Shown here: positions 19,804-52,045 of the stretch, one piece after another
Numbering within the stretch: position 1 is the first letter of the stretch
Layout: every line of letters begins with the position of its first letter
Source of the DNA: Candidatus Thorarchaeota archaeon
GTDB taxonomy: Archaea; Asgardarchaeota; Thorarchaeia; Thorarchaeales; Thorarchaeaceae
Direction of reading: 5' to 3'
DNA length: 64,000 bases
Assembly (NCBI GenBank): GCA_048882485.1
Contig: JBHLRP010000010.1
Location: forward strand, 1-64,000
Translations under genes and position numbers: made by a program
The notes under the pieces: generated by a model
Database searches by the model: none
What the model was told of the DNA's origin: nothing
What the model saw: only the letters and a program-made list of their open reading frames with translations

Positions 19804-21870
19804 TCATTGCATCACATTATCTTTTACAAACGACTCAAAGTCCTTGATGCATTCATCAGTTATTCTCCCCTCATTTACGCTTGGGTATTGCGAGTAGGCT
19901 GCTAATGCCTTTCCAAGTTGAAGCATGCGAGATGAGCAGCATCCTTCCCCTATACTATCAACTGCAACATCACTGGGGGCTTGCTTTGCTTTGGCTTTTG
20001 AGTCGATTACCTTTCTGCATACAATAAGCGCATTGTGGTTAATGCCATGTGCCCTAACACCGCTGGGTGTTTCGCCATGTGTCGGATACACCGCCTCCAC
20101 AAAGAATCCGGTATTCACAAGAATCTGCAAAATGGCAGACCACGCTTTGAGTCGCTTATGCTGGAAGACGAACACGAGTTTGGCATCATCTTTCATCACT
20201 CTACGGAGTTCACTATACACCCGCATCATAGATTCGATGAAAAAGTTAGAGTCCTTGCCAGTCTTATTGTACACGAGGATCTCGCTTTTACTGCTGCTGG
20301 TTTCTTGACCGAATATCATTGGATATGCGTCATACAATTGCCTACGCAGCCATACATAGAAGAAGTTCGAAAGCTCTGAGTACATGATATTATCGAAATA
20401 GGGTGGATCAGTGACGACAGCATCAATAGCTTTGTCTGGAATGAAGCCTAAGTCTTCTGATGACTGACATTTCAGCAAAGCACTCCTTCGTGACTTCAGC
20501 TCCTGGAAGCTTTCTACAAACTTAGCTCCTATCCTATCCCCTACAATGACTCTCTCCCTATTTCTTGTAGGTTCGCTCTCTCCAGAGTGCCCCTCAGTAA
20601 AACGTATCTCGTAGGGATTTTGCTGAAATCTTAGAGCACGTATTCCTTTGATGATATATCTTCTGAAGCTTCCACGACCAACTTTCGCGCCCCACACGTT
20701 GTTCTCAACTGGAGTAGTGGGCGGAGAAAAGTAGTGTCCGCCGAATAAGGGCTCAAGCTTTGAGGCATGAATGTTATAGATACAAAACATGTTGTTAGCA
20801 TTGAGAGTGTCTGAAAATGTGAGAAGTAGGAATTCTCTAACGGGGTCTTCGCGAACTTCTAGAATCTGTTCGAGAATCATAGAAAGGGCAAGCAACTGGC
20901 GAGAATTGAAGAAATCACAAAATTCCCTGTACACTTTACAACGCGGACGCATTGTAGCCATGTTATTCCACGGAACCTCATCGTCCGGAATCAGTGTACC
21001 CATTACCCTCTCTTTTCGTTGACTGAATTTTCTCTCAGCTTCATCTATCCTCTTGAAGTCTAAATCCTCTGGTGTCTTGTATCCTCTCCCACATTTACCA
21101 CAGTGGAACTCAAGGGCATATGGCCTCTCCCTGGGAGGGCTATCTTCCGACAACCATGCTTCTGTCAAATCCCCTTTTTGGTTGCAATTTGGACATCGGT
21201 AGCTCTTGTTTGTTGCATATGGATCATTCAGGTTCATTCCACAGGGGCATAGAGGTCCATCTGCTGTGATCTCATTGCAGGATGGGCAGAAATAGACTAC
21301 ACTCTTGTTTTTGGGTTTCGCAATGATGAAGGATTTGAAGAGAGGAACTTCGAAGTCACAGGACTGGCATTTTACACTTCTTACCCAGAACGTATACATT
21401 GTGTCTGCTTCATGTCCCTCAGGACAAGTTGTCATGTAGAGGGAAAGAATTTTTGACGCAACAGCATCTCTAATCCGATAGAATTCAGCCTCCAATTGAG
21501 TGACATCAACAGCCTCTAACTCCTTCTTCGTGATGAACCATGCCATTGGATTGATGTCTACGCCAATTGTCCTACATCCAAGGCGATGCCCTTCTACAAT
21601 GGTGGTTCCGCCTCCCATGAATGGGTCTAATATGATTGGTGATTTTCCGCTAGCGTTCTTCAAGACGACTTTTTCGTAGAATCGTGTCATTGGATTCTCG
21701 TCAAGAAAAAGGCCTATGATTATGCTTCTGAAGGTGCTGCCCACTCTTCTCGCGAACCATTTGTGCATATGATAAATAGGCTTCCTCGAGTTGCTCTCAC
21801 TCCACGCAATCTCATCGATTGCCTCACTAGGGAAACCTCTCTCTATATACACCAAACTTCTTTCCCTCAT
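19804..21870 (-). CDS. DUF1156-type adenine-specific DNA methyltransferase with Zn ribbon
   Basis: MHKWFARR, LDPFMGGGT, multiple CxxC, FFNSRQL and VTDPPYFDNIMYSELS motifs. Confidence 0.85.
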   Translation of the reverse strand: MRERSLVYIERGFPSEAIDEIAWSESNSRKPIYHMHKWFARRVGSTFRSIIIGLFLDENPMTRFYEKVVLKNASGKSPIILDPFMGGGTTIVEGHRLGCRTIGVDINPMAWFITKKELEAVDVTQLEAEFYRIRDAVASKILSLYMTTCPEGHEADTMYTFWVRSVKCQSCDFEVPLFKSFIIAKPKNKSVVYFCPSCNEITADGPLCPCGMNLNDPYATNKSYRCPNCNQKGDLTEAWLSEDSPPRERPYALEFHCGKCGRGYKTPEDLDFKRIDEAERKFSQRKERVMGTLIPDDEVPWNNMATMRPRCKVYREFCDFFNSRQLLALSMILEQILEVREDPVREFLLLTFSDTLNANNMFCIYNIHASKLEPLFGGHYFSPPTTPVENNVWGAKVGRGSFRRYIIKGIRALRFQQNPYEIRFTEGHSGESEPTRNRERVIVGDRIGAKFVESFQELKSRRSALLKCQSSEDLGFIPDKAIDAVVTDPPYFDNIMYSELSNFFYVWLRRQLYDAYPMIFGQETSSSKSEILVYNKTGKDSNFFIESMMRVYSELRRVMKDDAKLVFVFQHKRLKAWSAILQILVNTGFFVEAVYPTHGETPSGVRAHGINHNALIVCRKVIDSKAKAKQAPSDVAVDSIGEGCCSSRMLQLGKALAAYSQYPSVNEGRITDECIKDFESFVKDNVMQ

Positions 21871-22325
21871 AGATGCAGAGTCCAGATTACAGCATCATCA
21901 TGTGGATAGAGGTCTGGAACATCTGCAACCTCCTTGAACCCAATAGACTTGTAGAAAGCTCTTCCTGCCTCATTGCCCTTCTCCATGAAGAGGTAGATGA
22001 CTCGCAGCTTATGGTCATGTTTTGAGTAGTGCTTCGATACATCATGGATTAGTGTTTGGACAAGTTCTCTTGCGACACCTTTTCTTCTATAATCAGGGTT
22101 TACTCCAAGTCCAATTAGCTCAACTACACCATCATCAAGGCCACCCCTGACATCCCAGCTTACTGTGCCTACAATATTGCCATCATAAAGACTGAGAATG
22201 GTCTGAAATCTTAATAGGTCAGTAGCAAAGGCTTCAGCGCGGTCTCTATTGTCTTCTACCTCTGAAATGAATAGCTTGACAAGGAGCTGCTTATCAGAAC
22301 TTGCGGCTTTTCTCACTGTTCGCAT
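21867..22325 (-). CDS. GNAT family N-acetyltransferase
   Basis: VNPDYRRKGVA and NEAGRAFYKSIGF motifs. Confidence 0.85.
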   Translation of the reverse strand: MRTVRKAASSDKQLLVKLFISEVEDNRDRAEAFATDLLRFQTILSLYDGNIVGTVSWDVRGGLDDGVVELIGLGVNPDYRRKGVARELVQTLIHDVSKHYSKHDHKLRVIYLFMEKGNEAGRAFYKSIGFKEVADVPDLYPHDDAVIWTLHL

Positions 22326-22374
22326 ATTGCTAATGAAGCAGAGCAGGCAATTGTATCTGCCGGATTGATTGAAA

Positions 22375-23157
22375 CTAGTCGATTAATACAACCGCATCTA
22401 CGAATAGTTCGTACTTCTCATCCTCATCGAGATTATGTACTAGTACTTTCTCCACTTCAAACTCGCCTCGAATCTCCAACAGCCGCGACTCAGTGATTAC
22501 TTTCACACTGGAGTTTTCAAGTTCTTCGCGTAATGCGTCATTGGTGACAACTTCTTTCTCTTGAGTCAACAAGACTACACGATCTGTTTGTGCTGTGAGT
22601 TCAAGAGCTGCCTCAACTGATTCATCACCGCTATGGAGGACTAGCACCCTTTGATTGGTGAAGTCCTCGAGATCACTCACATCAAGATAAACACCCTTGT
22701 CAAGGAATTCATCCTGTCCTATGATCGCGCAAGCCGGCTGCTCATACTTAGGTTCCTTTGCTGCTACCTCATCGGGATTCTCCCTTGCACGGTAGGCTTT
22801 GATAGCTTCATGAAGTGCATCCGCAGCAAGATTTGAGCAGTGCATTTTGATTGGCGGCAGACCATCCAGTTCTTCAGCGACGTCTTCTCTGGTGACTTGC
22901 ATAGCTTCATCGAGTGTCATCCCTATAACCATCTCTGTGGTCATGCTACTTGTGGCAATCGCCGATCCACATCCAAAAGTCCTGAACTTTGCGTCGACTA
23001 TTTTTCCATCCTCGACCTTGATGAAAACTTCCATCAGGTCTCCACAGGTGGGATTTCCTACACGACCGCTCGCTACGTCATCTCCTTCTAATACGCCCAC
23101 ATTTCGTGGATTGCGAAAGTGCTCGAGTACCTTTTCACTGTATTGAGTAGACTTCAT
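22375..23157 (-). CDS. iscU: Fe-S scaffold IscU/NifU fused to a degenerate thioredoxin-reductase NADPH-binding domain
   Basis: YSEKVLEHFRNPRNVG, GNPTCGD, FGCGSAIA and LPPIKMHCSNL motifs, plus a C-terminal Rossmann-like extension. Confidence 0.85.
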   Translation of the reverse strand: MKSTQYSEKVLEHFRNPRNVGVLEGDDVASGRVGNPTCGDLMEVFIKVEDGKIVDAKFRTFGCGSAIATSSMTTEMVIGMTLDEAMQVTREDVAEELDGLPPIKMHCSNLAADALHEAIKAYRARENPDEVAAKEPKYEQPACAIIGQDEFLDKGVYLDVSDLEDFTNQRVLVLHSGDESVEAALELTAQTDRVVLLTQEKEVVTNDALREELENSSVKVITESRLLEIRGEFEVEKVLVHNLDEDEKYELFVDAVVLID

Positions 23158-50645: not shown

Positions 50646-51038
50646 GTGAGTGCCAAATTCGCCAAAGAGGTGAATGTATTCTCTAGTGCCAACCAGGTAT
50701 TCCAAGAGACTCACGAACCTTTCGTCAAGCCTTCTTTTGAGAGCCTCGCTGCATCATTCTTGTCTCTAGCAGATATGAGAATGAGTGAGACTCAGAAATA
50801 CGTTCTGAGAGTGAGTGCCCAGCTGTTAAGGCATAATGATCTGACAGTGACGGCATTAGCAGACCAGGTATCACGCAGGGCTTCAGTTGCCTATAGCACT
50901 GTGAAATGGAATCTGCGATCCTTAATGGACTTGGGTTTGCTATCTGGCGGTGATATGGAAAACAGAGGACAGCTGGCAAAGCTTACAGCAACTGCTGTAA
51001 TGTTGGCTAACTTCCTCGAAGAACAGTATTACAAGTGA
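50646..51038 (+). CDS. Winged-helix DNA-binding protein
   Basis: TVTALADQVS...AYSTVKWNLRSLMDLGLL...AKLT motif. Confidence 0.7.
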   Translation: MSAKFAKEVNVFSSANQVFQETHEPFVKPSFESLAASFLSLADMRMSETQKYVLRVSAQLLRHNDLTVTALADQVSRRASVAYSTVKWNLRSLMDLGLLSGGDMENRGQLAKLTATAVMLANFLEEQYYK

Positions 51039-51087
51039 GAGGCGGGATCACCTTCGAGAGTAATCCCCTCTCATTCTCTTTTTTTCC
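51034..51087. terminator. Stem-loop plus T-tract between convergent genes
   Basis: tgagagg-c-gggat...atccc-ctctca inverted repeat followed by ttctcttttttt. Confidence 0.55.
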
Positions 51088-51106
51088 ACTGCTTGCCGCG
51101 GGTTGC

Positions 51107-51158
51107 AACCCGGCCTCCATCGACACCGCATTACTTTAGGTGTAGATATCATCGGATT
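51107..51158 (-). promoter_or_regulatory. Eukaryote-type SECIS element overlapping the stop codon
   Basis: mRNA reads AAUCCG AUGA UAUCUACACCU AAA GUAAUGC GGUGUCGAUG GA GGC CGGGUU. Helix I is AAUCCG/CGGGUU, the core is AUGA/GA, helix II is UAUCUACACC/GGUGUCGAUG, and the apical AAA lies 11 nt after AUGA. Confidence 0.85.
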
Positions 51159-51952
51159 TTCTTGTTGAAGAAGCCCCATGCCATATTGATGAGGCTTCGA
51201 ACCTCGTCAAGACCGTGCGCGGAGGCGAGGACAAGATCAACCGAACTGCTATCACCCGGCTTCAAATCACCTAGGTTGCACTGCAGACCGGTGGCAATGT
51301 CCTTCGGTCCCGCTTCGGGATTGTTCTTTAGGTCGCGCTTTTCTGATTCTACCTTGAGCTTCAGTGGAGATGATATCTCCCAGCCATCAGGACTCGGCTG
51401 TGAGGAAATGGCTACAGAAACCTGGCTTTCATCATAGGCAATGACGATTCCGTTCTTTTCGTCATAGGTGCCCATGTCGTCTTTGTAGCTCATTGGACCT
51501 CCTATATCGAAGTCGAAGATGCTGTAGACCTTGAGGTCTTGGACCATGCTGGAACTGACGTTCGTTGTCGTATGCCGGAGTAGCAAGACAGGTTTGTTGT
51601 AGCTCCACAAATCAAGTGTGAAGTTGACCACAGGTTCCTCGAATTCTTGAGGTGCGTGGCTCATCACTAGTCTTAGGCTACCTTTCTTCTGCTTTCGCTC
51701 CACGACAGCGATGGTGTCAGCTTCCGTCGACTCGACGACAGCTACAGTCCCATCTGCGACATAAGACGCCCAGATACCGCCTTTATAGTCAGCAGGATTC
51801 TTGAGCAGTAGTCGTTCCTTTCCGGTGGGATCTATCAGTCCGAGGCGTCTGATGTAGAAACCGATGCGACCTACGCCTCATGACGCACATTCAACAGCAT
51901 AACTGATGTCGAGCCTTGGACGTCGGTTACCGGTTTCAAAGATCTCGGACAT
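51149..51952 (-). CDS. Putative novel selenoprotein (267 aa, CxxU with Sec25) with a beta-supersandwich-like C-terminal domain
   Basis: ATG at 51952 gives MSEIFETGNRRPRLDISYAVECAS-TGA(51880-51878)-GVGRIGFYIRRL..., continuous with the 184-aa ORF 51149..51703. A SECIS lies at the 3' end. Confidence 0.85.
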
Positions 51953-52045
51953 GACCGACCACGTTCCTATGCTGATTTCTCCGAGTTTCCTAGAGTTAAA
52001 AGCTCTACCATACATAAGCCGCACAACTACGCCTGGGTCACAAAG

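Follow-up and report, generated by a model that had tools for sequence, protein, structure and literature searches.

Selenocysteine (Sec)-containing proteins described in Asgard archaea belong to seven families, SelD, FrhA/VhuU, HdrA, FrhD/VhuD, Prx-like, AhpF-N and DsbA-like, all of which were found via homology to known families (PMC11227280, PMC13188914). Five families were listed by Mariotti et al. in 2016 (PMC4989117), and HdrA, Prx and MvhD by Sun et al. in 2021. The survey of over 400 Asgard genomes by Huang, Xiao and Zhang (2024) was restricted to families already reported and listed seven (PMC11227280), a list that a 2026 review repeats (PMC13188914). The same studies described the RNA elements that accompany these genes. 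The SECIS of Thorarchaeial frhA has an AUGA_GA core with unpaired A's 11 nt on and a G[U/G]AAA loop (Huang et al., PMC11227280), and in Loki VhuU.1 the stop codon overlaps the AUGA, a UGA too near the SECIS being, the authors argued, not recodable (Mariotti et al., PMC4989117).

Here we describe a gene from a Candidatus Thorarchaeota archaeon that shares this decoding style and encodes an unrelated protein. The window analysed is a 64,000-nt stretch of contig JBHLRP010000010.1, and the gene lies on its reverse strand.

The reading frame and its in-frame TGA

The frame that opens at ATG 51952 runs through 24 sense codons to a TGA at 51880-51878 and then through 242 sense codons to a TGA stop at 51151-51149, with the residues flanking codon 25 reading Y-A-V-E-C-A-S-[TGA]-G-V-G-R-I-G-F. 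The table-11 ORF list contained only a 184-aa GTG ORF at this locus and missed the full 267-aa frame, and ATG is absent from all 58 codons between TGA-25 and GTG 51703. The features of the gene are as follows.

51149..51952 (-): full selenoprotein coding sequence with TGA-25 taken as Sec, 267 aa plus stop
51950..51952 (-): start codon ATG, Met1, kept among orthologues
51887..51889 (-): codon for Cys22, which opens the CxxU motif, present in 29/29 aligned Thorarchaeial sequences and 20 more orthologues
51878..51880 (-): in-frame TGA, codon 25, taken as selenocysteine; codon 25 is TGA in orthologues
51149..51151 (-): stop codon TGA
51149..51703 (-): truncated 184-aa GTG ORF, the output of standard table-11 ORF calling

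A six-frame search of 400 Asgard genomes gave matches in 211. Within the window's own family (f1, Thorarchaeota by database names), 61 matches span essentially all 267 residues (39-97% identity), and 60 of these contain a single stop, which is always TGA, while the remaining one (G345) contains none. Thirty loci and then 20 further loci were translated, and codon 25 was TGA in every readable TGA-bearing orthologue (28/28 and 20/20, or 48 read directly). In the G345 orthologue (locus L017), Cys replaces Sec within E-C-S-S-C-G. A single open TGA could arise by chance in one sequence, but chance is excluded here because the same codon is affected in 60 of 61 orthologues.

The N-terminal region brought in by reading through the TGA is well conserved, with the consensus M-S-E-x-L-E-T-G-N-R-x-P-R-L-D-x-x-Y-x-x-[E/D/K/N]-C-x-x-U-[G/R]-x-G-R-x-G-F. 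Orthologues share an M-S-E-I/V-L/F-E-T-G-N-R N-terminus at Met1, most of them have an in-frame stop 3 codons 5' of the ATG, and 21 of positions 1-44 are invariant in the 29-sequence alignment, with many invariant positions among residues 26-45. Pooled pairwise pN/pS was 0.257 for codons 1-24 and 0.260 for codons 26-60, showing that purifying selection is equal before and after TGA-25 (pN/pS ~0.26). Column entropy by codon position followed the same pattern (0.52/0.25/1.17 before the TGA and 0.45/0.26/1.02 after it), the third-position value being ~4-5 times the second-position value on both sides. Codon periodicity was absent in the 72 nt 5' of the ATG, where entropy is flat (1.36/1.37/1.34).

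The database proteins of this family are all short (241 aa or fewer) and begin at 10 or more different points, all after the TGA; with the called starts scattered in this way, there is no conserved restart codon. TGA conservation, two-sided selection and the lack of a conserved restart together form a pattern for which neither a stop nor a pseudogene nor an assembly error can account. The annotated short "hypothetical" gene is thus very likely a 267-residue selenocysteine-containing protein that has been truncated in annotation, for which there is no protein-level evidence of selenium.

The SECIS element and Sec decoding

The 3' end of the gene carries a eukaryote-like SECIS whose core overlaps the stop codon.

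51114..51152 (-): eukaryote-like SECIS, supported by covariation and by covariance model R1
51152-51149 (-): SECIS core A-UGA, in which the UGA is the gene's stop codon
51147-51140 with 51126-51119 (-): SECIS helix II, 8 bp
51139-51127 (-): 13-nt SECIS apical loop, CUAAAGUAAUGCG
51117-51115 (-): SECIS 3' core, GA(G)
51095..51115 (-): second small hairpin, stem GCCGGG/CCCGC and loop UUGCAA, directly after the SECIS 3' core

Orthologue 3' ends could be aligned without gaps (alignment A3) starting one base before the stop codon, and the elements follow in the order A-UGA, one free base, 8-bp helix, 13-nt loop, return strand, one free base and GAG. The stop codon is TGA in 50/50 orthologues, preceded by A in 46 and by G in 4, and the AUGA core consists of the last base of the final Arg codon and the gene's own UGA stop. 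The apical loop, CUAAAGUAAUGCG in the window and GUAAAGCnnnGCA as the consensus across orthologues, begins (G/C)UAAA, which places unpaired A's about 11-12 nt from the core. Standard pairs occupy 97.3% of the alignment cells of the helix, with compensatory changes at all 8 of 8 pairs. None of 500 shuffles equalled the observed pairing values, and sliding the partner strand by 1-3 columns lowered pairing to 32-48%.

Covariance model R1, built from the 39 alignment columns of the SECIS region, hit 2 places across the 3.96-Mb genome, with the window element scoring 48.9 bits. Of 20 held-out orthologues, 17 gave an R1 match positioned precisely on the stop codon (E 1e-12 to 0.016); in the remaining three, visual inspection revealed the same arrangement with loops that vary. 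R1 found no SECIS match in the Cys-containing orthologue (L017, G345). A search of Rfam over 51020-51220 with E up to 10 returned no SECIS family; whether Rfam includes an Asgard SECIS model was not checked. An Rfam miRNA match at the 3' end was rejected as chance and is really the terminator hairpin of the convergent gene.

A strict SECIS pattern scan of the genome overlooked the window element, which has one U.C mismatch, yet led to a VhuU-like hydrogenase selenoprotein gene on contig C46 with the motif Y-D-C-U-L-S-C-G-A-H. This gene ends ...GGC-GGA-TGA, and its A-UGA leads into a 10-bp helix capped by loop GUAAACGAACG; a closing GA comes next, and then a small hairpin and a pyrimidine tract. 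Both genes thus use the core UGA as stop codon. The window gene resembles Asgard VhuU and FrhA genes (PMC4989117, PMC11227280) in its 3' SECIS, AUGA_GA core, helix of ~8-10 bp and GUAAA loop. It differs from them in that the proteins are unrelated, the Sec codon lies 242 codons 5' of the SECIS instead of a few dozen, and an additional conserved hairpin follows the core. The gene therefore carries a SECIS of a locally known kind (Thorarchaeial/Asgard style), as established by the layout of the VhuU-like gene in the same genome, the frhA elements of Huang et al. and the overlap reported by Mariotti et al.

Per-sequence folds show the second hairpin in 30/30 orthologues, with differing stems and a loop close to AAGCA. 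Outside the window's subgroup, the codons for F-x-K-K-I pair with the UTR beyond this hairpin in 11 of 22 orthologues, over 9-14 contiguous pairs (for example, TCGACAAGAAGA with TCUUUUUGUCGA). Within the window's own subgroup this lower-helix (helix I) pairing was no better than in shuffles. The pairing would form a lower helix and a three-way form, which remains a possibility that in the window's subgroup does not rise above chance level. Another helix I candidate, AAUCCG/CGGGUU, was rejected, being lost in other orthologues whereas the competing second hairpin is kept.

The genome also encodes machinery for Sec synthesis and insertion.

C88:8546-8632 (genome G000): tRNA-Sec, 59 bits, called SeC(tca) by ARAGORN
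C88: SepSecS, 444 bits
C88: SelB, 277 bits
C6: SelD, with an in-frame TGA, i.e. Sec-containing
Contig end: PSTK, only a 57-bit N-terminal fragment, cut by the contig end

Several of these results bear on an earlier note, made from the sequence alone. Its 267-aa frame (ATG 51952, single TGA at 51880-51878) was confirmed from the sequence, its 184-aa GTG ORF with 58 ATG-free codons upstream also held, and so did its claim that gene callers truncate the protein, all database homologues being short. It had proposed a CxxU selenoprotein using a 3' SECIS. Homologues align TGA or Cys at codon 25 with conservation on both sides, and tRNA-Sec, SelB, SepSecS and Sec-containing SelD are present with PSTK as a fragment only; both checks came out in its favour. 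The SECIS is present and conserved, with its core overlapping the stop codon. The selenoprotein claim thus held via orthologues, selection, SECIS and machinery, with selenium in the protein itself being inferred.

Protein fold and the wider Asgard family

Searches of the full protein against Pfam and NCBIfam with E up to 1 gave no match; NCBIfam, though rich in selenoprotein models, has none for this protein. An AlphaFold model built from 29 Thorarchaeial sequences left residues 1-56 unresolved, and a model from 41 sequences including distant relatives reached a pLDDT of 90.1 and a pTM of 0.89. The predicted structure is an all-beta sandwich with a C-terminal helix, at which the chain ends. 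In an all-against-representatives structural search, matches spanned the whole chain (residues 1-267).

Glucodextranase N-domain, GH15 (1ulv_A 19-258): Z 22.6
Bacterial glucoamylase N-domain, GH15 (1lf6_A): Z 22.4
GH94 N-domains: Z 20-21
GH116: Z 20.5
GH65: Z 17.9
Galactose mutarotases (GalM-like): Z 15-16

Foldseek concurs with a supersandwich fold (E 4e-10), and leads from ESM-Atlas, queried with the table-11 part of the protein, are consistent with it. The fold, as predicted by the model, is a stand-alone, galactose-mutarotase-like beta-supersandwich without a catalytic barrel. Alignments to GH15 and GH94 N-domains (1ulv, 1lf6, 2cqs, 1v7v) cover 226-245 residues with rmsd 2.5-3.0 and Z 20-22.6, but identity is only 10-17%, there is no Pfam match, and the (alpha/alpha)6 catalytic domain is missing. 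In GH15, GH94 and GH65 enzymes the supersandwich domain normally precedes a catalytic barrel, whereas the window protein is the domain alone. To our knowledge, no selenocysteine or CxxC site occurs in GH15 or GH94 N-domains, and the supersandwich is a fold not previously linked to selenocysteine.

The model places C22-x-x-U25 at the turn of the first hairpin, formed by strands 13-21 and 30-40, and this turn has the lowest model confidence (block mean 71). Residues invariant in Thorarchaeia cluster in D-F-D-x-G-G, S-Y-K-D-D, G-P-x-D and W-S-x-N-x-P, several of them being conserved family-wide too. Thioredoxin-fold CxxU selenoproteins (SelW/SelT/Rdx; VhuD, HdrA) have in common with the window protein a CxxU in which Sec is the more C-terminal of the two residues and Gly comes next, but the window protein is an all-beta supersandwich with no thioredoxin fold. 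No homology was found to any of the seven published Asgard families (no Pfam or NCBIfam match, different fold), and the family is absent from published Asgard selenoprotein lists in the literature searched, coverage of which is incomplete.

Among 1.8 billion representatives, an exhaustive search without profiles returned only 39 relatives. Outside Thorarchaeia, 27 loci from four other Asgard families (f21, f22, f23 and f30) were sampled.

f22 (AT-rich, Loki-type SECIS), 17/19 sampled: Sec in frame
f22, two g70 genomes, 2/19 sampled: Sec codon kept, then a 29- or 32-nt insert breaking the frame
f23, 3 sampled: C-[T/S]-[V/I]-U
f30, 1 of 2 sampled loci: C-S-K-U; the second locus (L074) ends before the site
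f21, 4 sampled: C-x-x-C

The motif within f22 is C-I-T-U in genus g60 and otherwise [L/F/I/W]-x-x-U, and MAFFT places the Sec/Cys sites of all families in one column. In f22 the SECIS lies 10-35 nt 3' of a TAA, TAG or occasionally TGA stop, and reads AUGA, N, UCAAAUAA, A-rich loop, UUAUUUGA, N, GA. The two g70 genomes retain both gene halves and the SECIS intact around the 29- or 32-nt insert. Four database proteins (P0046, P0048, P0056 and P0066) also have C-x-x-C. The idea that Cys forms are confined to genomes without Sec decoding was ruled out by the finding of tRNA-Sec in two f21 genomes; since f21 uses CxxC despite tRNA-Sec, Sec is not obligatory. One further database protein, P0039 (119 aa, ENA, from a single 620-nt contig), carries W at the Sec position. 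TGA occupies this position in every one of its nearest genomic relatives, its own species is missing from the representative genomes (best match 71%), and the W probably reflects table-4 gene calling of TGA, the underlying DNA being unread.

The position of a second Cys varies across the family. Thorarchaeial proteins have the Cys at -3 and no C-terminal tail. In 26 of 27 non-Thorarchaeial proteins, a tail of ~45 residues bears a conserved Cys, 1-4 residues before the end of the chain. Most Lokiarchaeial members lack the -3 Cys and conserve the tail Cys instead, and f23 and Loki g60 have CxxU and the C-terminal Cys together. A second Cys, at -3 or on the tail, is thus always available to Sec/Cys25.

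Gene neighbourhoods also differ between lineages. The Thorarchaeial gene is monocistronic, with a divergent 427-aa coiled-coil gene on one side and a convergent 130-aa winged-helix-regulator-like gene on the other, an order retained in 25-28 of 28 Thorarchaeial loci. These neighbours, as well as p166 and Dtd, keep their synteny throughout the family, which may be mere genome collinearity, and they offer no functional hint. In 23/23 sampled loci of f22 (Lokiarchaeial) and f21, the gene is immediately preceded, in the same orientation, by one for a 320-aa Roadblock/LC7-Ras-family GTPase. This pairing is absent from the sampled loci of Thorarchaeia (including the window), f23 and f30. The contig studied here has no GTPase matching the paired Loki/f21 one, the genome's many Ras-like genes being on other contigs. 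A GH38 gene adjoins in one locus of the f22/f21 set and a GH2 gene in another.

The earlier note had guessed at a glycoside-hydrolase N-terminal/galactose-mutarotase-like fold, which the model and Foldseek bear out, excluding a thioredoxin fold at the level of the model. Its view that the protein is not a known archaeal selenoprotein held against Pfam, NCBIfam and the published Asgard lists searched, and its proposal of a new family also held, the family being far wider than that note could show. Its description of a redox protein is still only an inference.

Proposed mechanism, alternative readings and significance

We consider it very likely that the locus is a real Thorarchaeial selenoprotein gene with a SECIS-decoded UGA-25, a supersandwich product and an inferred redox function. 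Gene structure, decoding signals and fold are shown; redox chemistry and substrate are inferred only. In this proposal, translation would begin at ATG 51952, and Sec-tRNA(Sec) and archaeal SelB would decode UGA-25 as selenocysteine, with insertion directed by the eukaryote-like SECIS. The terminal UGA would terminate translation instead of being recoded because this second UGA sits inside the SECIS. The product would be a cytoplasmic single-domain beta-supersandwich of the GH15/GH94/GH65 N-domain type with no catalytic barrel.

Sec25 may be a reactive centre that forms a selenenylsulfide with a resolving Cys, an inference for which there are no redox or Sec-Cys distance data. This couple is proposed because a further Cys, whether at -3 or in the tail, invariably accompanies Sec/Cys25. 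The putative resolving residue would be Cys22 in Thorarchaeia and the Cys at the tip of the C-terminal tail in most other lineages. A tail Cys near the C-terminus that resolves a distant reactive Sec or Cys is familiar from thioredoxin reductase and MsrB. Non-Thorarchaeial members are similar to these flexible-tail enzymes in having a conserved Cys on a tail, here helical, but the family has its Sec in the body and its Cys in the tail, and the window protein is tailless. The acidic pocket (DFDxGG, SYKDD, GPxD) is inferred to bind a substrate or partner, perhaps a sugar.

One alternative reading takes the TGA as a true stop, leaving either a broken gene or a 24-codon upstream ORF with a separate downstream gene. 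The database gene callers all treat the TGA as a stop, and one recorded 46-aa peptide (P0061) ends at it. Against this, the TGA is fixed at one codon in ~60 species with equal purifying selection on both sides, there is no conserved restart codon, and a Cys orthologue exists, as do a SECIS and Sec machinery, so that this reading is all but excluded. Near-cognate decoding, in which UGA-25 is read through as Trp or Cys instead of Sec, can point to the W in P0039, but that protein comes from one 620-nt ENA contig whose nearest genomic relatives have TGA, and table-4 calling is the simplest account of it. Sec is conventionally recognised by its alternation with Cys in combination with a SECIS, both of which are seen here, making near-cognate readthrough very improbable.

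Other alternatives accept the selenocysteine and question its role. Sec25 and Cys22 or the tail Cys could be ligands and not a redox pair, binding a metal or small molecule on a knuckle-like turn, possibly with His99 and His127, in a protein that acts as a binding or sensor module. In the classic metal "knuckle", a CxxC occupies the turn of a beta-hairpin. In the model, the motif does lie where strands 13-21 and 30-40 meet in such a turn, Thorarchaeial sequences hardly vary at His99 and His127, and f23 and Loki g60 (CxxU plus C-terminal Cys) offer three candidate ligands. However, the family-wide constants are Sec/Cys25 and one Cys of shifting position, which fits a resolving Cys better than a fixed ligand shell, and the wide alignment does not conserve His99 or His127; we regard the ligand reading as unlikely. 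A role as partner of an Asgard small GTPase (an effector, a GAP/GEF-like regulator or a redox switch), with the Sec site gating the interaction, is likewise doubtful. The Roadblock/LC7-Ras GTPase gene directly upstream in 23/23 f22/f21 loci supports such a role, but the pairing is missing in Thorarchaeia, f23 and f30, the contig has no matching GTPase, and gene adjacency is no proof of interaction. The GTPase-partner and redox readings are not mutually exclusive.

The preferred reading, a SECIS-decoded selenoprotein with an inferred selenenylsulfide couple, combines a known SECIS style with a fold new to selenoproteins in an uncatalogued, widespread Asgard family. A bolder reading, which we think improbable at present, would make the gene the founding example of an Asgard-wide family in which a reactive Sec sits on a carbohydrate-enzyme supersandwich; in Lokiarchaeia and one other lineage, the family would be firmly coupled to a gene for a Roadblock-Ras GTPase.

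Archaea are considered to have small selenoproteomes. This uncatalogued family is matched in 211 of the 400 Asgard genomes searched, and all current annotations wrongly present its members as truncated hypothetical proteins. With Sec in nearly all sampled members of two large lineages, it would be one of the most widely distributed selenoproteins in Asgard archaea. The family also adds dozens of new natural SECIS examples, including stop-embedding cores and the three-way form, to the story that leads from archaeal to eukaryotic SECIS elements, and the Loki gene pair connects selenium biochemistry with Asgard small GTPases in a way that can be tested.

Surroundings of the selenoprotein gene

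Three features flank the window selenoprotein gene:
50646-51038, plus strand: convergent gene for a 130-aa protein
51025-51084, plus strand: GC-rich hairpin followed by a U-run, right after the convergent gene
51953-51961, minus strand: the 9 nt directly 5' of the selenoprotein ATG

The hairpin probably represents the terminator of the convergent gene, which it resembles, and it is also likely to mark the boundary of the selenoprotein 3' UTR. An Rfam match of the same hairpin to a miRNA was put down to chance. Synteny between the convergent gene and the selenoprotein gene holds at 27 of 28 Thorarchaeial loci; the 130-aa product had no match in Pfam, but its sequence resembles a winged-helix regulator. 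On the other side, most orthologues have TGA-TCN-GTN in the 9 nt immediately 5' of the ATG, which places a stop three codons ahead of it; the window has TGG-TCG-GTC. This conserved stretch is similar to the GGUGAUC end of the archaeal Shine-Dalgarno site.

Family members in other Asgard genomes

A gene for a Roadblock/LC7-Ras-family GTPase (~320 aa) lies directly upstream of the family member, in the same orientation, in all 23 sampled genomes of the Loki family f22 and of f21, another Asgard family with CxxC members (loci L086, L087 and L088 plus 20 short loci within L046-L075). Two of these f22/f21 loci also have an adjacent GH38 or GH2 gene.

Two Loki genomes carry an insert in the selenoprotein gene:
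L060 (G217:C43): 32-nt insert directly 3' of the Sec TGA
L064 (G188:C1): 29-nt insert directly 3' of the Sec TGA

Both insert lengths equal 2 mod 3, and the N-terminal piece, main ORF and SECIS are all intact despite the insert. A mini-intron, a bypass and a young pseudogene are each conceivable.

Genome G345 holds the sole Thorarchaeial orthologue with Cys in place of Sec (locus L017). Its SECIS loop is degenerate, and no tRNA-Sec was found above the Rfam cut-off in this 89%-complete genome. This lineage may be in the process of losing Sec.

Further selenocysteine-related features in the window's own genome

Three other contigs of the genome carry Sec-related features:
C88:5155-8632: Sec-machinery cluster with SelB, SepSecS and tRNA-Sec together
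C46, ~21280-22770 in plus-strand numbering, minus strand: two copies of the end of the VhuU-like hydrogenase selenoprotein gene
C65:15415-15723 (locus L041, 1231-1539): SECIS covariance model (R1) match, 55.7 bits, with a small ORF

On C46, the last 16 codons of the VhuU-like gene and its SECIS are present twice, at a spacing of ~1.2 kb. In the second copy the remainder of the gene is missing, so this copy is a partial duplication of the gene end with its SECIS.

The C65 element scores higher than the window element itself and lies ~60 nt 3' of a 69-codon ORF that contains an in-frame TGA. The encoded product combines a membrane anchor with a Thr-rich linker and the stretch P-P-C-T-T-G-U-G-P-P. 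Both ORF and TGA are preserved in three genomes of the same genus, and the gene is a second candidate for a new small selenoprotein.
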